Shown piece by piece: positions 3,053 through 53,572 of a stretch of DNA of 64,000 nt (positions are counted from its first letter, which is position 1; each line of letters starts with the position of its first letter). The DNA is taken from the NCBI GenBank assembly GCA_964360785.1, contig CAYHXX010000001.1, positions 412,264-476,263 on the forward strand. The letters are read 5' to 3'. The stretch comes from an uncultured Gammaproteobacteria bacterium (GTDB lineage Bacteria; Patescibacteriota; Microgenomatia; Woykebacterales; RBG-16-39-9b). The position numbers and the translations under genes were made by a program. The notes beneath the pieces are model-generated. The model saw only the letters and a program-made list of their open reading frames with translations. It was not told the DNA's origin and did no database searches.

Positions 3053-4459
3053 TTAAAGCTGGAGTATTGCCTTCTCTATTCTTTCTAGAGTTTTCTCTTT
3101 CCCAATAAGCTCAACTGTCGAGAAAAGGGGAGGAGTTGCTTCTCTACCAGTTACTATTATTCTTAGAGTCATAAAAAGCTCTCGTCGGCTCCAACTTGTG
3201 CTTTCTTGAAACTTTGAAATTGTTTCTTCTAAAGCTGTTTCAGTCCAACTTAAGTTTTTCAAAGCTTCAACTAGGTTCCCTAGAATCTCTTTTGCTTGAA
3301 TATTTTCCTTGCCTTTTGGCAAATAACTTTCCTTCGGGGTTTCTATATCTTCAAAAAAGAAACTAACTAAAGTATCAAACTCTGAAAGTTTCTTCATTCT
3401 TTCTTTAACCAAAGGCAAAACTTTAATTATCTGTTCATTTGAATACTTAGAGAATTTTTCCTGCTGCAATCTTTTGACCAATTCAACTTCTGGCATTGCC
3501 CGAATATACTCTCCGTTTAGCCAATCGAGTTTTTGAACGTCAAATACCGGCCCACTCGGATCGATACGATCAAAACTAAAGGCTTCAATCATCTCCTCAA
3601 GTGAAAATATTTCTTGATCCCCAGACATAGACCAACCCATCAATCCCAAGAAATTCCTTAATGCTTCAGGTAGATAACCTTGCTGTCTGTAATAATCGAT
3701 GGCAACGGGATTTTTGCGCTTACTTATTTTACTTTTATCAACATTGCGTAATAAGGGTAAGTGCGCAAATTTTGGTTTTTCCCACCCAAAAGCTGAATAC
3801 AGCAAAACATGTTTTGGGGCTGATGAGAGCCATTCTTCCGCCCGAATTACATGAGATATTTCCATAAGATAATCGTCCACTACCGAAGCTAGATGGTAGG
3901 TTGGGAAACCATCGCTTTTGAGAAGCACTTGGTCATCAATCAGTTTGTTTTGAAATGTTATTTTTCCCCGAATCTCATCTTCTACAACAGTTTCCCCTTC
4001 CTCGGGGATTGCCAGACGAACAACTGTATTCTCAACTGATTTTGGCGGATTATAACGACATTTGCGATCATAATGTGGTACCGCGCCTTCTTTTTGTTGC
4101 TCGTCTCGAAGTTTCGTCAAACGCTCAGTTGTACACTCACAACGATAGGCTTTGCCTGAATTAATTAATTTCTCAACGTATTCTTTGTAAATATCCAATC
4201 TCTCAGATTGTCTATAAGGACCAGACCGGCCATCTTTTTCAGGACCTTCATCTGGTTCCAAACCCAACCATTTTAAAGCCTCATTAATTTCGTCTTCCGA
4301 ACCTTCGACAAAACGTGTACGATCGGTATCTTCGATACGCAGAATAAAATCCCCTTTGTTCTTTTTAGCGAAGCAATAGTTGAACAAAGCAGCATAAGCA
4401 GTTCCTATATGTGGGCTTCCTGTAGGGGAAGGTGCAATTCGAGTACGGACTTTTTCCAT
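3053..4459 (-). CDS. gltX: Glutamyl-tRNA synthetase
   Basis: Class I HIGH motif (SPTGSPHIGTAYAALFNY) and KMSKS-like KISKRK. 468 aa. Confidence 0.9.
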   Translation of the reverse strand: MEKVRTRIAPSPTGSPHIGTAYAALFNYCFAKKNKGDFILRIEDTDRTRFVEGSEDEINEALKWLGLEPDEGPEKDGRSGPYRQSERLDIYKEYVEKLINSGKAYRCECTTERLTKLRDEQQKEGAVPHYDRKCRYNPPKSVENTVVRLAIPEEGETVVEDEIRGKITFQNKLIDDQVLLKSDGFPTYHLASVVDDYLMEISHVIRAEEWLSSAPKHVLLYSAFGWEKPKFAHLPLLRNVDKSKISKRKNPVAIDYYRQQGYLPEALRNFLGLMGWSMSGDQEIFSLEEMIEAFSFDRIDPSGPVFDVQKLDWLNGEYIRAMPEVELVKRLQQEKFSKYSNEQIIKVLPLVKERMKKLSEFDTLVSFFFEDIETPKESYLPKGKENIQAKEILGNLVEALKNLSWTETALEETISKFQESTSWSRRELFMTLRIIVTGREATPPLFSTVELIGKEKTLERIEKAILQL

Positions 4460-4592
4460 AATCTTTTAAACTAATGCGTTGATTATAATCTCTACGGCTA
4501 GAAAGCGCGAGATGTTATCACAACAATGGTATTATTCTTTTCCAACCTAGCACAACTTGAGTGCGCAACTATAAAAAGTTATACTTTTAACA

Positions 4593-5663
4593 ATGACCGG
4601 CCTGCCCTATGTTGCTGAGAATATTAGATCTGTCCTCAAATGGAGTTTAATTTCCGTAGTTACGCTTTTTTCCTTGTGGGTTTTGTGGGTTGTCTTTAGT
4701 TTCACCTACAAACTAATTTTTCCTCCTCCCCCTGCACCACCTGATGTTGCTTTCGGAAAACTTAGGCAGCCAGTCACTTTTAATTCGACGTTCTCTGCAA
4801 ATCTTTTTATATTAGACACCCCGGGAAACACCTTTGTTTCTCCACCCAAAGCTTTGCAAGTTTATGAAATACCAAGGATCGAAGGAGAGTTTGCCTCTTT
4901 AGACAATGCAAAAAAGATTGCTAGAAACGCTGGTCTAGATAGTGAACCTCAGCAACTCTCCGATAATGAATGGCGATGGACCAACAAGAAAAACCCGAAT
5001 AAGTCTTTGAAGTTTAATATTGTAACTAACAATTTTGTTTATACCTACGACTGGAACGCTGACACAAAGGTTCTTGAGGGCAACTTTAAGACTAATGATG
5101 AAGCAATTATCTCAAAGGCTAAAGGCCAACTAACTTCCTTTAAAGCCTTGAAAGATGATTTAAAGAACGGAACAACACGAATCAGTTATTGGAAAATAGT
5201 TGGCAAGGATCGAAACAGTGTTGGAAGTTATTCAGAAGCCAATGCTGTAATGGTGGAATTCTTCCGCCAAGAAATTGATAAGGAAAATAAGCTAATTGAA
5301 CTAAATCCAGACCGAGCACAGGTAAACGTTTGGCTTTCACCTAGTGCTGGAGACAATCAGTTATTGGAATTAAATTACACCTATTTTAGTTACAGCAAAG
5401 ATAAAACAGCAACCTACCCACCAAAGTCAGGAACACAAGCTTTTGAGGATCTCAAGACTGCCAAAGCATTTATCGCAAAGGGCCTAAACGAAACTTTTGA
5501 AACCATTACGATTACCAAAACTTACCTTGCATATCTAAATCCAAATACTGATCGAAGAACTTTACAACAAGTTTATGTGTTTGAGGGAAACGGTATTGTG
5601 AAAGGCGAGAAAAAGGATTTTGTTGCCTATGTACCTGCAATTACCAAAGACTATCAGCGCTAA
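4593..5663 (+). CDS. Hypothetical membrane-anchored extracytoplasmic protein
   Basis: 356 aa. Single N-terminal TM (LISVVTLFSLWVLWVVFSF) then a polar domain with no motif I recognise. Lone plus-strand gene between two minus-strand aaRS genes. Confidence 0.5.
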   Translation: MTGLPYVAENIRSVLKWSLISVVTLFSLWVLWVVFSFTYKLIFPPPPAPPDVAFGKLRQPVTFNSTFSANLFILDTPGNTFVSPPKALQVYEIPRIEGEFASLDNAKKIARNAGLDSEPQQLSDNEWRWTNKKNPNKSLKFNIVTNNFVYTYDWNADTKVLEGNFKTNDEAIISKAKGQLTSFKALKDDLKNGTTRISYWKIVGKDRNSVGSYSEANAVMVEFFRQEIDKENKLIELNPDRAQVNVWLSPSAGDNQLLELNYTYFSYSKDKTATYPPKSGTQAFEDLKTAKAFIAKGLNETFETITITKTYLAYLNPNTDRRTLQQVYVFEGNGIVKGEKKDFVAYVPAITKDYQR

Positions 5664-29164: not shown

Positions 29165-29193
29165 AAAGAAAAGCAGGCTATTATAACCTGCTT
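29165..29193 (-). terminator. Intrinsic terminator (AAGCAGG/CCTGCTT stem, then TTTTCTTTTTG on minus strand); the stop codon of the upstream gene lies in the loop
   Basis: 7-bp perfect stem, 9-nt loop, T-run. Confidence 0.55.
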
Positions 29194-29558
29194 GTGGCTA
29201 CTGATCTCAATTTATCTAGAGCTCTTTTCTCTATCCGACGCACGGTTGTCGACGAACAACCCATCTCCTGGCCAGTTTTTTCTTGAGTTCTCGGCTGTCC
29301 ATCTTTGATCCCAAAGCGAAACTCGATTACTCGTCTTTCCCTTTCATCCAAGGCCTCAAGTGATGATCTTGATCTTTCTTGAGGCAGAGACCTTCGTGAA
29401 TACTCTTGACGTATTTTTTCAACATCCTCTGGTTTTCTTGATCTGAGTTCCACTAGCGGTGGGTAGCCTCCAAATATTTGCCACAACAGCCGTTCCTCCA
29501 CTATGGTCTTGTCCTTAACCTCTTGCCAATCGACCTCGGAATACGGCATTACCTTCAT
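29181..29558 (-). CDS. Sigma-70 region 4-only protein (about 125 aa). The track ORF extends to 29696, but AAGGAG lies 7 nt before the internal ATG at 29558
   Basis: Region 4.1/4.2 motifs ERERRVIEFRFGIKDGQPRTQEKTGQEMGCSSTTVRRIEKRALDKLR. No region 2 or 3 upstream. Confidence 0.55.
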   Translation of the reverse strand: MKVMPYSEVDWQEVKDKTIVEERLLWQIFGGYPPLVELRSRKPEDVEKIRQEYSRRSLPQERSRSSLEALDERERRVIEFRFGIKDGQPRTQEKTGQEMGCSSTTVRRIEKRALDKLRSVATSRL

Positions 29559-29637
29559 CGCTACTCCTTTCCCGGCGATTATAGTTTTGGTCAGATTTCT
29601 AGTCAAGTAACTAGACTTTAGTGTTAAACTGTTATCT

Positions 29638-30465
29638 ATGGCTTTCAACCCGAACACAATCTGGATATCACATACCTCTTTGAATGATTTTGACAAGTGC
29701 AGACAGCTTTATTATCTGCGCAATCTCTACCGCGATAAGAAATATGGTAATAATTTTCGCTTGCAGGTGGCTTCTCCTTTTCTGTCTTTAGGCGAAGCTG
29801 TTCATGATGCGATCGATCATTTTACTGAGCGTTATGAACCAGAACAAAGAAATATTGATCGGTTGATGTATGAATACAAAAGAGGTTGGAGTTTAAAACC
29901 AGGGAAAATTGGTGGTTTTAAAGATGAGGGTCAGGAAAAAGAATTCAAAGAACGCGGTGAAACCATGCTTGAGAGATTTATGAAAAACACTTATTTCTCC
30001 AAAGGTAATCCGATCAGAGTAAGTTTTCCCAAACTACCCTTAGTTGGTGAAGATGATGTTGTCTTGGTCGGTAACTTTGATTGGTTGGAAAAAACTCCAG
30101 AGGGTTTACATATTCTCGATTTTAAAACTGGAAAGGAAGAGGCTGAAGATTCCCTGCAACTCCCGATCTATACCATTCTTGCTAAACACGTTTTGAAAGA
30201 ACCGGTTGCTAAGGTAAGTTACTGGTACCTAGATCGTGACGACGATCCGATCGAAGCTAAAATTCCTGATTTAAGTAAAACTTTAGAGACGGTCAAAGAA
30301 AAGGCTGCCAAAATGGAGGACGCGATAAAATTCCAAGACTTCCCATGTCAGGCAGAAATCGGTTACTGCAAGCACTGTCACGAATATCACAAAGCGAGCA
30401 ACGATCAAGCTGAACATGTCCAAACCGACTTTAAACGCAAACGAGAAGTATTTTTCCTAGATTAA
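29638..30465 (+). CDS. PD-(D/E)XK nuclease-superfamily protein, Cas4/RecB-like, with a 4-Cys (FeS-type) cluster
   Basis: One N-terminal Cys (DKCRQLYY) plus the C-terminal CQAEIGYCKHC. Motifs LGEAVHDAIDHF and ILDFKTGKEE with QLPIY are PD-(D/E)XK-like. Confidence 0.6.
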   Translation: MAFNPNTIWISHTSLNDFDKCRQLYYLRNLYRDKKYGNNFRLQVASPFLSLGEAVHDAIDHFTERYEPEQRNIDRLMYEYKRGWSLKPGKIGGFKDEGQEKEFKERGETMLERFMKNTYFSKGNPIRVSFPKLPLVGEDDVVLVGNFDWLEKTPEGLHILDFKTGKEEAEDSLQLPIYTILAKHVLKEPVAKVSYWYLDRDDDPIEAKIPDLSKTLETVKEKAAKMEDAIKFQDFPCQAEIGYCKHCHEYHKASNDQAEHVQTDFKRKREVFFLD

Positions 30466-30483
30466 TCATTGAACCTATAGCAC

Positions 30484-30512
30484 TTGACACTAGTTTTCAC
30501 CTTTGTTATAAT
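30484..30512 (+). promoter_or_regulatory. Perfect consensus sigma70 promoter (TTGACA, 17-nt spacer, TATAAT)
   Basis: TTGACActagttttcacctttgtTATAAT. Drives a ~128-nt leader that contains a hairpin plus U-tract at 30529..30584. Confidence 0.55.
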
Positions 30513-30646
30513 TTCTCCCTGTTCCAACGGCATCTAGTATTTGGACAAAACTTTTTGTTTTATCTAGCTACCAGATGCCTTTTGGTGTCCGGCATGGTTG
30601 TGAGCCCGAACAACTGTGAATGAAAAGGGCAAGGAGAAACAGTCGG

Positions 30647-30991
30647 ATGACAACAGAGGTACGGAAGATGCTCGAGACGGTGAGCCCGGACTGGGTGAGG
30701 GCGAACTTCGACGCGCTGAAGCGCGGCGGCCATGTGCTAGCCGGCACGCCACGGATGGGAGGCGACCTGATCCTGCTCAAGCCCGTTGACGCGGACGGCA
30801 CATGCTTCGAGGCGGTCAACGTCGGCCGCATCTGCGAGGAACCGACCACCGACGACGGCGTCCTGTTCGGCATCGCGACCGAGCTGTTCCCGACGGAGCC
30901 GACGGGGAACAACGGTTCGAGCGAGGTCAGGCGCAAGAAGATCCACGTCCAGCTCGCCGACGGCATCGCTGCCAACCGCTCGCGCAGGTAA
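30647..30991 (+). CDS. Hypothetical protein (114 aa) encoded in a very GC-rich island with actinobacterial-like codon usage
   Basis: AAGGAG lies 10 nt upstream. About 90% G/C at codon third positions in this frame only. Protein is MTTEVRKMLETVSPDWVRANFDALKRGGHVLAGTPRMGGDLILLKPVDADGTCFEAV.... Other ORFs in this segment are overlapping-frame artefacts of high GC. Confidence 0.5.
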   Translation: MTTEVRKMLETVSPDWVRANFDALKRGGHVLAGTPRMGGDLILLKPVDADGTCFEAVNVGRICEEPTTDDGVLFGIATELFPTEPTGNNGSSEVRRKKIHVQLADGIAANRSRR

Positions 30992-31065
30992 CCTCACAGC
31001 TCCCGGCGCCGCGAACAGTTTGCATGGTGGTAAGGCAACTTAGGTAAAAGCTATCCACCCACTTC

Positions 31066-31105
31066 GGCCGTTAACCCTCTCACCCCTTGGGAGAGTTAAC
31101 GGCCG
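31066..31105. repeat. Long GC-rich palindromic hairpin (GGCCGTTAAC-CCTCTC-loop-GAGAG-GTTAACGGCC) containing two GTTAAC sites
   Basis: A 10-bp perfect outer stem plus a 5-bp inner stem. No U-tract follows. Confidence 0.5.
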
Positions 31106-31143
31106 CCATCTTGAGCAAACAAAATTTGTTGGCTGAAGAGGAG

Positions 31144-31176
31144 AAACGACTTTTCGTATGAAGTCGTTTTTCTTTG
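31144..31176 (+). terminator. Intrinsic terminator (AAACGACTT/AAGTCGTTT stem, then TTTTCTTT)
   Basis: 9-bp perfect stem, 8-nt loop, T-run. Terminates the GC-island transcript. Confidence 0.6.
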
Positions 31177-31198
31177 GCAAAAATTGATAGAATAAGGT

Positions 31199-31771
31199 AT
31201 GGTCTTTAAATCAAAATTTATTTTACTTCGCCATAACGAACCGAAATCTTTTCCTGGTCCATGGATCCAACCTCACAATAACCCGCTGAGCCAGAATGGA
31301 ATCGAGCAAGCAAATTTAATTTCCAAAACTTTAGAAGATGAGAAAATTAGTGCTATTTATTCCTCTCCATTTGCACGATCCTTGCAAACCGCAGATATAA
31401 TCGGCAAGAATCTAAATTTAGAAGTTATAATAAAAGAAGATTTAAAAGAAAGAGCCCAGGGTGATTTGGAAAACCAATCCTTTTCCGAAGAAAAAATAAA
31501 CAATCTTTGGGAAGAGTTTGAAAAATTTAAATCTCTGTCTCTAGAAGAGCAGTGGGTTTCAAGACCGTTTCCAGGTTTTGAAACCGACGCAGAGTTGCTA
31601 AAAAGAGCCTTAAATTGTTTAGCGGAAATTTCCCAAGAAAATATTAACAAATTAATTTTACTTGTAACTCATGCGGGTTTAATAAAAGTACTCTTGATTC
31701 ATTTCGGTATTATCTCTTTGAAAAACCGGGACGATTTTAAAATTAAATTTAATGATATTTTTGAAATCTGA
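31199..31771 (+). CDS. Histidine phosphatase (phosphoglycerate mutase-like) family protein
   Basis: N-terminal LLRHNEP (RHG-like) motif, SSPFARSLQTADII, and C-terminal VTHAGLIKVLL. Confidence 0.7.
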   Translation: MVFKSKFILLRHNEPKSFPGPWIQPHNNPLSQNGIEQANLISKTLEDEKISAIYSSPFARSLQTADIIGKNLNLEVIIKEDLKERAQGDLENQSFSEEKINNLWEEFEKFKSLSLEEQWVSRPFPGFETDAELLKRALNCLAEISQENINKLILLVTHAGLIKVLLIHFGIISLKNRDDFKIKFNDIFEI

Positions 31772-32570: not shown

Positions 32571-33374
32571 TTAAGGTAATGTTTTATCGATTCTCTTAAT
32601 ACTCTTGGCCTTCATTTTTGTCCCAGTTTCTATCAAAACCGAGCGGAAAAGTCTGGGACCTGTCTCAACCCATTCAAACTTAACTGGTTCAGTATCTTTC
32701 TGTTTACGGATGATGATTTCCGGAACAACTCCCAAAACTGAGTTTTGTGCCCCACACATTCCGACATCAGTAACAAAAGCTGTCCCAGCTGGCAGTAACC
32801 AAGTATCAGCTGTGGGGATATGAGTATGTGTTCCACAAACAGCTGTCACTCTACCGTCAAGAAACCAGGCAAGAGCGTTTTTTTCCGAAGTAGCTTCAGC
32901 GTGAAAATCGACGAAAATAAACTCTGGTTTTTCTTTGTTTACTTGATCGTTAAGTATTTGATCAATGGTGCGATACGGCTCATCAACAGGCTGGTCAATC
33001 CATTGTCGCCCGAGAAGATTAATGACCATTACTTTCTTGGTTTTTACCTTGGCAATTGTGAATCCAAAACCAGGGCTGTCTGAGGGATAGTTGGCTGGAC
33101 GAATTACAGTAGGATCATTATCTAGAGTTTCAGCAAATTCTGGTTTGAACCAAATATGATTTCCACTGGTAAAAATATCAACGCCGTACCCACGTAATTC
33201 ATCGACCTTGTCAGCAGTTGCACCTTTGCCATGGGAAAGATTTTCGATATTGGCAATCACCAAGTCAATTTTTTCTTTCTTGATCAATTCAGGTAAGACA
33301 GCGCCAACTGCCTTCCGTCCTTGCTTTGCAACGATGTCACCAATCATTAGTATTTTCATTTTTGTCTTCAACAA
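32571..33374 (-). CDS. ymdB: YmdB-like (TIGR00282) metallophosphoesterase
   Basis: MKILMIGDIVAKQGRKAV...GNH motifs. Immediately downstream of rny, as in the Bacillus rny-ymdB arrangement. Confidence 0.8.
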   Translation of the reverse strand: MLKTKMKILMIGDIVAKQGRKAVGAVLPELIKKEKIDLVIANIENLSHGKGATADKVDELRGYGVDIFTSGNHIWFKPEFAETLDNDPTVIRPANYPSDSPGFGFTIAKVKTKKVMVINLLGRQWIDQPVDEPYRTIDQILNDQVNKEKPEFIFVDFHAEATSEKNALAWFLDGRVTAVCGTHTHIPTADTWLLPAGTAFVTDVGMCGAQNSVLGVVPEIIIRKQKDTEPVKFEWVETGPRLFRSVLIETGTKMKAKSIKRIDKTLP

Positions 33375-33441
33375 ATATCGTGCGCAAATAATATTTTTTT
33401 AACTTTTCAAAGTTTCAATTAGCACGATATAAACCGACAAA

Positions 33442-34941
33442 TCACTTCGCCAAGGATTCTGCCCTAGTTTCCCGCATCACCGTTACTTTCACGGTACCCG
33501 GATAAGTCAGTGTGTCATGAATCTTAGTCGCGATATCGTTTGCTAGAATAGTCAAATCATTATCTCCCATTTGCTCTGGGTATACAATAACTCTTACCTC
33601 CCGCCCAGCCGCAATTGCGAAGGACTTGTCGACTCCTTTGAAGGAGCTGGCCACGTTTTCAAGCTCCGTAATTCTTTTTATATAATCTTGAACTTCTTCG
33701 TGTCGAGCTCCTGGTCTACTCCCAGAAATAGCATCGGCAATATAGACGATGATACTTTCAACAGAAGAAAATGGCTTATCTTCGTGATGCTCGGCCACTG
33801 CATTAACCACTCTTTGGTCAATGTTGAACTTCTTCAAATATTCTACTCCAAGCTCAACGTGAGAACCCTCTTGTTCTCCGGTAAAAACTTTTCCAATATC
33901 ATGGAACAAACAACCGAGTCGAACTATATTGGCATCCGCGCCAACTGTTTTTGCCACGGCAACCGCAATCTTTGTTTCCTCTAGTGTGTGAAGGAACAAG
34001 CTTTGGCCGTAGGAATAGCGCCATTTAAATCTTCCGAGGGTGTCGACTAGTTCTCCTGGAAGGTTGTGAACTCCAGCCATACTACAAAGTTTTTCTCCTT
34101 CTTCACGACGAATTTTCTCAAAATCTTTTTGCACCCGATCCACCACTTCTTCTATTCGTGTTGGTTGTATTCGGCCATCAGCCATCAATCTCTCAAGAGC
34201 AATCTTGGCTACTTCCCGTCTTTCCCCATCAAAACATGACAATCGAATTGTTCCTGGAGTATCATCCAGATCCACATCTACACCAGTGGCCATCTCAAAA
34301 GCTTTGATGTTGCGACCTTCTCTACCGATAATACGACCTTTCATATCATCATCTGGCAACCGCACAATCGAAGTTGTGTACTCGGGCACGTAGTCAGTTG
34401 CACCCGCCCGCATAGCATCGACCAGAATACCTTTGGCTTTTTCATCAGCCTCTCGTTTGATTTGCTCTTCGGCTTCGCGAATTCTTCTGGAAACCTCATC
34501 CTTTAGCTTGCTTTCGGTAGCATCAATGATCAGCTTTTTAGCTTCCTCACGAGTAATAGATGCAACTTTTTCTAATTTAGTTGCTAGCTCTGTACGAGTT
34601 TTCTCCAGATCTGCCTCTTTGCTCTTTAAACCCTCCTCCTTGTTCTCAAGATCACCAAGCTTTTTGTCGAGGTTTTCCTCTTTAGCAGCTAATCTTGCCT
34701 CAAGCTGCAACACTTCTGAACGGACTTTGCTTGATTCCACTTCTGCTTCACGTTTTATTTTCAAGGCTTCATTTTTGGCATCGAGAATTATTTCCCGAGA
34801 ATCTGCTGATTCGGAAACTTCTCCTATTTTCTCAATTGGCTTTTTATTCTTTTGGGATTTAGCTACAAATTTCTGGTAACCGAAATATCCTGCGCCACCT
34901 GCCAACAGGATTGCTATAACTGCTATTGATATTGGATCCAT
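33442..34941 (-). CDS. rny: Ribonuclease Y
   Basis: N-terminal TM, coiled-coil, KH domain, HD domain (LFHDIGK). 499 aa. Confidence 0.9.
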   Translation of the reverse strand: MDPISIAVIAILLAGGAGYFGYQKFVAKSQKNKKPIEKIGEVSESADSREIILDAKNEALKIKREAEVESSKVRSEVLQLEARLAAKEENLDKKLGDLENKEEGLKSKEADLEKTRTELATKLEKVASITREEAKKLIIDATESKLKDEVSRRIREAEEQIKREADEKAKGILVDAMRAGATDYVPEYTTSIVRLPDDDMKGRIIGREGRNIKAFEMATGVDVDLDDTPGTIRLSCFDGERREVAKIALERLMADGRIQPTRIEEVVDRVQKDFEKIRREEGEKLCSMAGVHNLPGELVDTLGRFKWRYSYGQSLFLHTLEETKIAVAVAKTVGADANIVRLGCLFHDIGKVFTGEQEGSHVELGVEYLKKFNIDQRVVNAVAEHHEDKPFSSVESIIVYIADAISGSRPGARHEEVQDYIKRITELENVASSFKGVDKSFAIAAGREVRVIVYPEQMGDNDLTILANDIATKIHDTLTYPGTVKVTVMRETRAESLAK

Positions 34942-39229: not shown

Positions 39230-39655
39230 ATGACAAACAACAAAAAGGTCAAAGGATTCTCGAACGAGGAACGGGCTGCGATGAGGGAGCGTGCCCAAGA
39301 GCTTAAGACGGAAGCGCAGAAGGCGGATGGGGAGATGGCCGTGCTTGCTGCGATTGCTGCGATGTCAGAACCGGATCGCACCATTGCCAAACGGCTTCAC
39401 ACACTCATTAAAGAAAGCGCACCAACGCTCACGAGCAAAACTTGGTATGGATTTCCTGCATATGCTAAGGATGACAAGGTAATCTGCTTCTTCCAATATG
39501 CGGGAAAGTTCAAAACGAGGTACGCGACTTTTGGCTTCAGTGACACTGCCAAACTTGACGAAGGGAACATGTGGCCTGTCGCTTTCGCGCTGACAAAGTT
39601 GACAGACAGTGAAGAGGCGAAGATCGCTGCGTTCGTGAAGAAAGCCGTGAACTGA
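39230..39655 (+). CDS. DUF1801 (YdhG-like) domain protein, GC-elevated
   Basis: [25 protein letters not shown] is the core DUF1801 motif. GC is clearly above the window background. Confidence 0.6.
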
Positions 39656-48881: not shown

Positions 48882-49478
48882 TTGCGAAGTACTCTCGTCT
48901 TCGGCGCTGCGGTGCTTACGGTCTTCATAACCGTGACAACTGCCTCAACACCGAACCCAAGAGTGGCTGGCGAAGGGGACTCAGAGTCTCTCAATTCTCA
49001 GCTGCTAACTGAAAGTGGGACGAGGACACAACCTGATTGGTTAGCTGTTTCGCCAACAGCGACGCTGTTCAGCCCAACCCCGTTTGTTTCAAGTCCTACT
49101 GCCACAGCAGTGGTAATCCTGGCGACTCCAACTATTGCACCGATTCCTGCACCAGAGCACCTGGCAGCAACAGTTGAACCTGGCAGTCCCATCGGAACTT
49201 TCCGCATTTCGTTCTATACCTGTGCGGAAAACCCGAACTGCCAAGATGGTTGGCCAACCGATGCCACCATCGCTACGGACCCGGCGCGAATCCCGCGGGG
49301 AGCTTGCGTCGTTATCGAGGGGATAGGCCAAAAGATCGTTGATGATGCTGGCGGTGGAATCAAAGGAGATCGAATCGACGTGTTCTTGCCAGCGGAACCA
49401 GGCGAAAGCATGGAATCAGTACACCAACGAGCTCTTGTACTCGGAGTAGTCTACCGAGACGTCTTTAGGTGTACATAG
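48882..49478 (+). CDS. 3D-domain (MltA-like Asp-Asp-Asp) protein with signal peptide; GC-rich, TTG start
   Basis: GGAGG 8 nt before the TTG. GACVVIEGIGQKIVDDAGGGIKGDRIDVFL is the 3D motif. Segment GC is roughly 55-60%. Confidence 0.6.
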   Translation: MRSTLVFGAAVLTVFITVTTASTPNPRVAGEGDSESLNSQLLTESGTRTQPDWLAVSPTATLFSPTPFVSSPTATAVVILATPTIAPIPAPEHLAATVEPGSPIGTFRISFYTCAENPNCQDGWPTDATIATDPARIPRGACVVIEGIGQKIVDDAGGGIKGDRIDVFLPAEPGESMESVHQRALVLGVVYRDVFRCT

Positions 49479-53494: not shown

Positions 53495-53572
53495 AATTGT
53501 TTCTTAACAAATATATCGTGCGCATATTGATTTCATAATTTTTCAAAATTTCCTTTAGCACGCTATTTTTTT

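Follow-up and report, generated by a model that had tools for sequence, protein, structure and literature searches.

Several described systems resemble, each in part, the locus analysed here. Allelic specificity loci of the pherotype or immunity type combine conserved flanks with a hypervariable centre. The leaders of ompA and aprE, riboswitches and RNA thermometers rely on stabilisation by a 5' stem-loop or on pairing of the initiation region, and diversity-generating retroelements (DGRs) carry target-recognition elements akin to a GC-rich box with hairpins. For compositionally atypical acquired genes Lawrence and Ochman reportedly put forward an amelioration model, and atypical G/C content at third codon positions (GC3) is routinely taken as a timestamp of recent transfer; in the present case the anomaly persists across allele classes. 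No account of the gene or of the phenomenon was found in the literature. We read the locus, with evenly balanced confidence, as an accessory expression cassette that recombines and encodes a small, fast-evolving protein, with its G/C richness being actively maintained.

The window, by which we mean the complete 64-kb stretch of DNA that was analysed, originates from the genome, with a GC content of about 40%, of an ultra-small groundwater bacterium of the Saccharimonadales (candidate phyla radiation, CPR/Patescibacteria). The cassette itself is a self-contained, accessory unit of about 700 bp with one gene. Its central block at 30586-31110 has a GC content of 0.627 and the ORF inside it (30647-30991) one of 0.661, while the flanks stay at 0.39-0.40 and the remaining 525-nt windows of the 64 kb average 0.402 (sd 0.034, maximum 0.552). 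The GC-rich block named in the preliminary description is thus real, although the figure is 63% rather than 65%. The cassette occupies a variable slot between a gene for a PD-(D/E)XK nuclease and a DUF2196 gene. The neighbours, described before as a Cas4-like nuclease and a protein consisting of sigma region 4 only, were identified by domain search as PDDEXK_1, with a weak match to Cas4 as well, and as a Sigma70_r4-only protein. No homologue of the sigma-r4 gene was detected in the loci of the relatives, and this slot was seen together with the cassette solely in the window and in an identical contig, L001. The locus is, as originally proposed, a single-gene cassette in which the codon usage of a high-GC organism stands under strong, host-like signals.

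For comparison we used two contigs identical to the window (L001 and L002, from ENA and Logan) and four further cassette loci (L003, L006, L007 and L008) from other samples that show the same architecture. The resulting set comprises five DNA sequences that fall into three allele classes, on which both covariation and rate estimates are thin.

All features described in the following lie on the plus strand. The cassette opens with a sigma-70 consensus promoter at 30476..30512, in which a conserved CCTATAGCAC is followed by the -35 element TTGACA, a 17-nt spacer with a TG preceding the -10 element, and TATAAT. The TTGACA-17-TATAAT arrangement at 30484-30512, previously noted as perfect, matches the consensus in 12 of 12 positions and is the only perfect one in the 64 kb, where 0.04 were expected; L003, L006 and L007 are 74-94% identical to the window over the promoter. 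From a putative transcription start at about 30519, the predicted transcript would extend over some 660 nt, beginning with a structured leader of 128 nt. The leader hairpin with a U-tract that had been proposed earlier was found at about 30530-30584, where it folds and is conserved with compensatory changes. This hairpin 1 (30530..30584) is a long, imperfect stem with the base GGCAUCU...AGAUGCC, followed by UUUUGG, and it is kept in all five loci, with 97.5% of the cells in its 24 pairs being paired and four pairs changed on both sides. Hairpin and UUUU are conserved, and alternative pairings are predicted downstream by RNAalifold and by single-sequence folds. Candidate roles for the element are those of a 5' stabiliser, an attenuator or a short RNA.

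The second part of the leader (30585..30646) contains hairpin 2, formed by CAUGGUUGU and ACAACUGUG, and the Shine-Dalgarno (SD) sequence AAGGAG at 30631-30636, located 10 nt upstream of the ATG as stated in the preliminary description; SD and start codon are conserved among the loci. A GCCC in the loop of hairpin 2 pairs with a GGGC immediately 5' of the SD, and this GCCC:GGGC pairing of the window is GCGC:GCGC in the other loci, a change on both sides. Direct reading of the L006 sequence shows a hairpin 2 built from other bases, CACUACCG and CGGAUAGUG. The translation-initiation region as we read it lies within this second conserved structure, with the segment adjacent to the SD predicted to be paired, and the first codons are probably base-paired as well, as UUUUGGUGUC can pair with codons 2-5 in RNAalifold and single-sequence predictions. 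An upstream ATG at 30620 was considered as the start, but is out of frame in L007 and L008. At the gathering threshold Rfam returned a tRNA-Pro only for the window, and with permissive thresholds the cassette and its four relatives produced nothing beyond chance apart from weak, terminator-like matches. With one hairpin some 10 nt from the putative 5' end and several at the 3' end the transcript is similar to stabilised mRNAs, and the conserved pairing, which lies beside the SD, covers the first codons and shows compensatory changes, is similar to translational riboregulators. It differs from the ompA and aprE leaders, riboswitches and RNA thermometers in that it matches no Rfam family, and both stability and regulation are what we infer.

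The ORF (30647..30991) encodes 114 amino acids plus a stop codon, with GC1/2/3 values of 0.626/0.470/0.887. This bears out the earlier estimate of about 90% GC3 in this frame; the 52 other ORFs of at least 150 aa in the window average 0.36 (sd 0.038, maximum 0.498). In its codon usage GGC and CCG reach 0.78 each and CTG 0.61, while ATC, AAG, TTC and CAG stand at 1.0; the base content of the coding strand is 0.21 for A and 0.13-0.15 for T. Across alleles the ORF has a length of 110-115 codons, and the gaps in the orthologue alignment, 9 and 12 nt, are multiples of three. Across all orthologues the sense frame alone stays open and none of the antisense frames does, in line with the view that ORFs in the other frames and on the other strand are artefacts; an antisense ORF considered as a gene was discarded as unconserved. 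L007 carries an in-frame TAG, which would mean that at least one lineage can do without the protein, unless the base is a sequencing error.

The protein is acidic and beta-rich, with a basic C-terminal tail (RSRR), a conserved hydrophobic pattern and no hydrophobic helix. A type I toxin-antitoxin toxin was rejected on account of these properties and the length of 114 aa. The pLDDT of the AF2 model rose from 46 to 65 once the five sequences were used. The preliminary description had not recognised the protein, and indeed only six homologues were found among about 15 billion proteins, all those with DNA lying in the same cassette. Searches against Pfam, NCBIfam, PHROG, PADLOC and a PDB sequence profile, as well as tblastn against phages and plasmids, gave no match, and neither sequence nor structure matched a known family or fold significantly. 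For CPR episymbionts the cassette defines a new family of orphan proteins and a structured leader not recorded before.

Downstream of the stop codon, the 3' end of the predicted transcript holds three conserved hairpins (A, B and C) and a terminator. The first part of the 3' UTR (30992..31065) combines GCUCCCGGCGCCG, a GC-rich box that is conserved, with hairpin A, in which GGUGG (31026-31030) pairs with CCACC (31055-31059); both are missing from L006. Hairpin B is the GC palindrome with two GTTAAC sites reported before, now confirmed at 31066..31104 as a perfect palindrome, GGCCGUUAACCCUCUC-loop-GAGAGUUAACGGCC, with a 16-bp stem and a 7-nt loop. L003 and L007 are identical to the window here at ungapped positions, and L006 has a shorter version with a compensatory exchange of GUUAAC for GCUAAC/GUUAGC, which argues that the element works as a hairpin and not as a restriction site. 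A search with the palindrome pattern yielded no match in genome collections and none in viral collections; two metagenome matches (L004, L005) belong to an unrelated long palindrome and lack nearby ORFs of the kind usual in bacterial genomes. Hairpin C (31109..31139, UCUUGAGCAAACAAAAUUUGUUGGCUGAAGA) has 12 pairs with 97.9% of cells paired and includes changes between G-C and G-U and between G-U and A-U. The intrinsic terminator recognised earlier at 31144..31176, with the stem AAACGACUU / AAGUCGUUU and UUUUUCUUU, appears in the minimum-free-energy fold as a hairpin with a U-tract, shows compensatory changes in three pairs altered on both sides among four loci, and has weak terminator-like Rfam matches; a simple terminator scanner did not include it in its list.

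The comparison of the loci revealed a pronounced contrast between arms and ORF. At least three divergent classes of ORF alleles exist, with protein identities of 35-72% and a GC3 of 0.89-0.94 in all five sequences, whereas the UTR arms are AT-normal, conserved well above the ORF and marked by compensatory base-pair changes. Hairpin 1 of L007 shares 98% identity with the window and 78% with L008, while the ORF of L007 shares 96% with L008 and 65% with the window, and the sequences thus indicate that ORF alleles and arms have recombined with one another. Most close relatives do not have the cassette, and it is missing at the same site in L009, L011, L012, L013/14, L016 and L017. In L010 a different gene occupies the cassette slot; its protein is unrelated to the family. 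The neighbouring slot in L013 and L016 contains GC-rich orphan genes with a GC3 of about 0.73 each, whose products were considered as one family and found to be mutually unrelated. With such a patchy distribution, the age of the cassette relative to its neighbours is a matter of inference. Accessory genes, a DGR included, are exchanged at both of the slots that flank the conserved gene for the PD-(D/E)XK nuclease.

In the preliminary description the cassette was taken to be either a recently acquired foreign gene or an assembly chimera. The GC content does change abruptly at either end of the block, and both short contigs that cover the region stop at window position 31384, as might be expected of a high-GC fragment misjoined into a low-GC contig. 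However, the ENA and Logan contigs cross both GC boundaries with no mismatch to the window, the four additional loci, which stem from other samples and other assemblers, present the same joined architecture in diverged sequence, and both boundaries lie in UTRs that are conserved and structured, leaving a chimera with a negligible probability. Recent transfer from a high-GC donor, for instance an actinobacterial host of the episymbiont, with the gene placed under native signals and amelioration still pending, is the other proposal. Cultured Saccharibacteria live on Actinobacteria as their hosts (PMC7784981), the codon usage matches that of high-GC bacteria with a GC3 of 0.887 against 0.36 in the window ORFs, and both the patchy occurrence with same-site absences and the GC-rich orphans of L013 and L016 would fit. 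Like horizontally acquired ORFans, the gene is small, familyless and patchy, sits in a variable slot and has foreign-looking GC3 and codons. It differs from them in that a donor was not found, with neither some 15 billion proteins nor phage and plasmid records containing a homologue from outside the cassette, and in that the anomaly, at a GC3 of about 0.9, is undecayed across divergent classes. Allele classes that are only 35-41% identical share a common AT-normal promoter, leader and 3' arms, and their divergence therefore took place within low-GC genomes. About one turnover per third position has occurred with GC3 still at 0.89-0.94, and third-position differences between A/T and G/C are balanced, which would be expected of equilibrium rather than decay. 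The claim of a recent acquisition did not hold up against orthologues that retain their GC3 in co-inherited, AT-normal UTRs, and we consider this explanation unlikely: judging from the sequences, the ORF is probably not a recent import, but it may be of ancient foreign origin.

An alternative in which the functional product is an RNA (structured, dual-function or short, ending at hairpin 1) and the ORF is incidental or decaying draws on the far better conservation of the UTR arms than of the ORF, a naive dN/dS of 0.5 to about 1 and the in-frame stop in L007; a consensus promoter with a terminator is usual for small RNA genes, and hairpin 1 with its U-tract could terminate an RNA of about 65 nt. 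Yet a non-coding RNA cannot yield the period-3 GC pattern, the sense frame alone is open with indels in multiples of three, SD and start codon are conserved, second positions evolve more slowly than third positions after composition correction (0.72 vs 1.01), no Rfam family matches and the ORF has neither conserved nor excess structure, so that we regard an RNA product as quite improbable. Programmed hypermutation by a DGR or a like system would explain both the divergence and the odd composition of the ORF. The relative L013 does have a true DGR in the adjacent slot, with an Avd gene, a GC-rich target gene, and a template repeat (TR, 757-865) and a variable repeat (VR, 1317-1425) that are 86% identical and differ exclusively at TR adenines in gene sense, a pattern that served as positive control; the GC-rich box and hairpins after the cassette's stop codon are also reminiscent of DGR target-recognition elements. 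The cassette shares with the variable-protein genes of CPR DGRs its accessory nature, its fast variation and its neighbourhood, but lacks a template repeat and the adenine pattern, and its variation extends beyond a C-terminal variable repeat. The 64-kb window contains no second copy of any cassette part, allele differences are ORF-wide and involve all bases, and the coding strand is not adenine-poor, all of which makes this mode of diversification very improbable. Neither an Avd gene nor one for a reverse transcriptase lies next to the cassette. With integron cassettes the locus has in common a short ORF followed by an inverted repeat and a slot whose cargo differs by genome, as in L010; it departs from them in having its own 12/12 promoter and terminator and a perfect palindrome without extrahelical bases. 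An attC site was rejected for these features and for cores, CGTTAAC/GTTAACG, that misfit RYYYAAC/GTTRRRY, and no array or repeated attC-like element was found in the 64 kb.

The best reading of the sequence data is that high GC3 is a long-kept property that is actively maintained and equilibrium-like. Corrected for composition, the distance that separates the allele classes at third positions is about 1.0, compared to 0.9-1.7 in the adjacent DUF2196 gene. Exchanges between G and C constitute 24-27 of about 40 third-position changes in the cassette ORF, but 2-4 of about 45-60 in DUF2196, and in the closest pair third-position changes towards G/C and towards A/T are in balance. As the anomaly persists after silent-site turnover inside genome-typical UTRs, some force must hold the level at about 90% G/C in this one ORF of 340 nt. 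The G/C richness would then be an old stationary state, sustained by a fixation bias towards G/C at silent sites that by our own arithmetic would amount to approximately ln16 = 2.8 in population-scaled units.

The likeliest cause of such a bias may be selection on message composition that would result in an mRNA with few single-stranded, AU-rich sites for nucleases, with the message being capped by hairpins at both ends. Folding of the ORF mRNA, with z scores between -1.55 and +1.35 relative to synonymous-codon shuffles, shows no excess structure, and no conserved fold was found inside the ORF, where the covariation term of RNAalifold is unfavourable. Any selection at the RNA level would therefore have to target bulk composition, an unusual mode. 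Alternatively, the bias might be caused by GC-biased conversion at a hot spot of recombination, but conversion of this strength is to our knowledge undocumented in bacteria. Selection would make the cassette a natural case of coding-region composition as a phenotype, and conversion would make it the strongest local case in any bacterium by a wide margin. Translational selection was dismissed, as no other long ORF (at least 150 aa) in the window exceeds a GC3 of 0.50, and this includes an unannotated group of short ORFs, clustered at about 49.5-61 kb, which we take to be ribosomal-protein genes. It is extremely improbable that G/C-rich codons are kept for function with a high-GC partner cell, for example through a transcript or DNA that is delivered to the high-GC bacterial host and read there, with the conserved arms acting as a swappable socket, for expression and recombination, of host-tuned alleles.

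Under the preferred reading of a maintained, recombining expression cassette, its organisation suggests an output that would be high, yet post-transcriptionally gated, and a product that we would guess to be a fast-evolving interaction or immunity-type protein. Pherotype and immunity-type loci provide the parallel in this respect, with highly divergent allele classes between near-identical arms, recombination breakpoints at the borders of arms and ORF, and changes between the closest pair in one loop. The cassette differs in that it has no partner gene for a toxin, receptor or peptide inside, its arms are the UTRs of its own transcript and its variable part is compositionally alien. The most variable part of the protein is a loop formed by codons 77-96, and in the closest pair of sequences the amino acid changes cluster in one loop.

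The block at 30586-31110 has a GC content of 62.7%, against 39-40% in its flanks and a mean of 40.2% (sd 3.4, maximum 55.2) in the remaining 525-nt windows across the 64 kb, and the ORF within it, 30647-30991, reaches 66.1%. Its third codon positions, described beforehand as about 90% G/C, have a GC3 of 0.887, while the 52 window ORFs of at least 150 aa average 0.36 +/- 0.038 and reach at most 0.498, so that a GC-rich gene in low-GC surroundings is indeed present. Host values for GC1/2/3 are 0.505/0.362/0.357 (13,141 codons) and those of the ORF 0.626/0.470/0.887; positions 1 and 2 are thus also shifted towards G/C (0.63/0.47 versus 0.51/0.36), and codon usage is throughout of the high-GC-bacterium type. 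Note that a mildly GC-elevated ORF (39230-39655, 141 aa) has a GC3 of 0.59, and that a 198-aa Pro/Thr/Ala-rich protein with a hydrophobic N-terminus, possibly exported, is encoded at 48882-49478 with a GC of 0.55 but a GC3 of just 0.48, its GC elevation therefore being driven by amino-acid content.

The preliminary description left open whether the gene was an assembly chimera or a recent foreign acquisition. Two contigs encode exactly the window protein, one from ENA (sample ERZ1292617, name prefix Hain_H52_01um) and one from Logan (ERR3858112). These two contigs match window positions 29196-31384 and 30296-31384 with 0 mismatches and hence span both GC steps, and a diverged copy of the whole cassette is found in four loci from other samples (L003, L006, L007 and L008), which all but disposes of the chimera. 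Both independent short contigs, L001 and L002, end at 31384, inside a His_Phos_1 gene (31199-31771) that lies between the cassette and the DUF2196 gene and is found only in the window lineage; the shared end hints at strain heterogeneity there.

Homologues were sought in 5.8 billion clusters by word-indexed search, in 1.84 billion representatives by exhaustive HMMER search, and with a profile; combined, these searches yielded a family of six proteins, P0001-P0006, with 35-72% identity to the window protein. All members for which DNA is available share promoter, leader, Shine-Dalgarno site, 3' hairpins and terminator; for a JGI member, a protein record only, the gene spacing fits the same arrangement. 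The sense frame is the only one open in all loci, save for one in-frame TAG in L007 (661-663) where L008 has GAG and beyond which the frame is intact. No antisense frame is consistently open, and the ORFs in other frames and on the other strand are artefacts, as had been proposed. Alignment gaps measure 9 and 12 nt, the start codon 10 nt after AAGGAG is conserved, and an upstream ATG at 30620 was rejected as the start, being absent or out of frame in L007 and L008. The invariant positions are G, P, L and F residues of the core, and strand-like hydrophobic patterning persists. By this comparative evidence the ORF encodes a protein. It is also a rapidly evolving one, judging from the 35-41% identity between genomes whose adjacent DUF2196 proteins share 76-78%; within codons 77-96, nine of the ten differences in the closest pair are amino-acid replacements. 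Family and fold searches gave no significant match to the 114-aa protein, which accordingly stays as unrecognisable as it first appeared; the AlphaFold pLDDT rose from 46 with two sequences to 65 with five, and the predicted model is beta-rich, beginning with a beta-alpha-beta-beta-beta unit. Our guess would be an interaction or immunity-type factor, as this fits the evolutionary rate, the variable loop, the accessory status and the slot.

Expression signals are as described earlier. The promoter TTGACA-17-TATAAT (30484-30512, + strand) matches in 12 of 12 positions with a TG ahead of the -10 element, a perfect match that occurs just once in the 64-kb window (0.04 expected); AAGGAG lies 10 nt ahead of the ATG, the leader carries a hairpin with U-tract, and the palindrome (31066-31104, +), read in sequence within the 3' UTR, is followed by an intrinsic terminator (31144-31176, +) with three two-sided pair changes. 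Hairpin 1 of the leader has 24 pairs, with 97.5% of cells paired and four pairs changed on both sides, and hairpin 2 is remade from different bases in L006. A loop segment of hairpin 2, GCSC, pairs with GSGC adjoining the Shine-Dalgarno site (GCCC:GGGC in the window, GCGC:GCGC elsewhere), and the U-tract with the following GUGUC has a predicted pairing potential with codons 2-5, which would explain the invariant Met-Thr-Thr; together these pairings resemble a control gate for the start of translation. In L006 the palindrome shows covariation (GUUAAC to GCUAAC/GUUAGC), and hairpin C of the 3' UTR shows wobble changes. In whole-structure controls 95.4% of leader cells were paired versus 38-46% with partners slid, and 97.8% versus 35-60% in the 3' UTR; the covariation scores were reached by 0 of 500 and 1 of 500 shuffles, respectively. 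With five leader and four 3' UTR sequences, these figures are supportive of conserved structured RNA arms, but not conclusive. Neither leader nor cassette matches an Rfam family. A CCTATAG/CTTATAG motif directly upstream of the -35 element (30476-30482) also lies upstream of the promoters of the GC-rich genes in the other slot of L013 and L016. Possible roles are a common UP element or a regulator site.

The segments of the L007 cassette differ in their closest relatives. In L007, hairpin 1 is 98% identical to the window but 78% to L008, the ORF 65% to the window but 96% to L008, and the first 3' UTR segment 87% to L003 but 69% to L008, while window, L003 and L007 share one identical palindrome. 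Recombination between ORF alleles and arms has thus taken place, with junctions near both ORF ends. Between the window and L003, silent and replacement divergence are both raised in codons 7-40 and 101-114 (dS 0.5-0.6 versus 0.18 in the middle), a pattern that suggests a mosaic origin. L007 further carries a ~95-nt insertion with GC-rich inverted repeats (210-300) between nuclease gene and cassette promoter.

GC3 is 0.90-0.94 in all homologues with DNA, at a flanking GC of 0.42-0.53; with the window ORF included the GC3 range is 0.89-0.94. The composition-corrected third-position distance between allele classes is ~1.0, and that of DUF2196 for the same genome pairs 0.9-1.7; nearly all third-position changes in DUF2196 are A/T versus G/C swaps with only 2-4 G<->C, whereas 24-27 of ~40 in the GC gene are G<->C. 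In the closest pair, changes from A/T to G/C (10) and from G/C to A/T (8) are balanced. Silent sites have therefore turned over without ceasing to be G/C, and on this substitution pattern the anomaly appears old and stationary. A recent acquisition does not fit this evidence, and no donor homologue was found in protein searches or phage and plasmid records; an ancient foreign origin is possible.

Such persistence would call for a G/C-ward bias at silent sites, which for a GC3 of 0.9 over a background equilibrium of 0.36 amounts by our own arithmetic to a population-scaled ~ln(9/0.5625) = 2.8 per site. Several candidate causes fail. The ORF contains no conserved secondary structure (covariation term +7 kcal), and its five mRNAs are no more stably folded than shuffles of synonymous codons (z -1.55 to +1.35). 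No conserved antisense ORF was found across the loci. Translational selection is rejected because no other window ORF of at least 150 aa exceeds a GC3 of 0.50; the surveyed set includes a short-ORF cluster at ~49.5-61 kb that we presume to be ribosomal-protein genes. A diversity-generating retroelement is rejected as well, as the 64 kb hold no template repeat and variation is not adenine-specific. The cause we favour is selection acting on the overall base composition of the message. RNase Y/E-type nucleases prefer AU-rich single-stranded sites, of which a G/C-rich message would offer few, and this fits the hairpin caps at both message ends; the gene at 33442-34941 codes for a putative RNase Y homologue, so named solely from its 84-87% identity to the genes in syntenic position in the three relatives' MAGs. 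GC-biased conversion, for which the evident recombination hot spot would provide the setting, is the alternative. We give roughly even credence to the overall reading, in which the ORF would define a new orphan protein family and a compositionally atypical accessory gene, notable because its anomaly is maintained by a G/C-ward bias rather than decaying.

The neighbours, announced as a Cas4-like nuclease and a sigma-region-4-only protein, proved to be a nuclease of the PDDEXK_1 family, its Cas4 hit being weak, and a Sigma70_r4-only protein, joined by His_Phos_1 and DUF2196 proteins. Three syntenic loci occur in GTDB genomes, L009, L010 (a Candidatus Saccharimonadales MAG) and L011 (a Patescibacteria MAG), with the common order MiaA - PDDEXK - DUF2196 - HU - YmdB - RNase Y and protein identities of 47-92%, in most cases at least 67%. 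L009 (CAYIWY010000001.1) is labelled 'uncultured Gammaproteobacteria bacterium', probably wrongly given its synteny with the window, most proteins being 67-87% identical, as in L010 and L011. The cassette is absent from all three, and from the contigs on which the nearest homologues of the PDDEXK protein (81-92% identity) are encoded. In L009 and L011 PDDEXK lies directly beside DUF2196, and in L010 the slot is occupied by an AT-normal ORF of 139 aa (1538-1957), an unrelated orphan that has a terminator of its own. The cassette is a real accessory unit with very strong signals, conserved structured arms and recombination between arms and alleles.

The slot between MiaA and PDDEXK is likewise variable in content, with a sigma-r4 gene in the window and a 124-aa AT-normal orphan in the relative L012. 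L016 has a GC-rich 249-aa orphan there (4126-4875, - strand, GC3 0.73) with a strong promoter; on both its 5' and 3' sides the flanking sequence is similar to that around the L013 gene (~65-68% identity), the two ORFs being unrelated. In L013 the slot contains what looks like a complete diversity-generating retroelement module (338-2108): Avd is encoded at 338-730, the template repeat spans 757-865, and the variable repeat, 1317-1425, falls at the C-terminal end of a 279-aa gene that is GC-rich (GC3 0.74). The repeats are 86% identical and all differences are T-to-N on the + strand, that is A-to-N in the gene sense, a signature by which this gene is a true target. Elsewhere in the window, a 61-nt intergenic element with the inverted repeat ATATCGTGCGC...GCACGATAT is present in two copies (33370-33430 and 53506-53566, 74% identity). 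The window's Sigma70_r4-only ORF (29181-29696, - strand) had no homologue among the relatives' loci. As listed, its start overlaps with the beginning of the nuclease gene, which is divergent; a near-consensus promoter, TTGACT-17-TATAAT (29606-29578), points instead to translation from the Met at 29558 and a product of ~125 aa.
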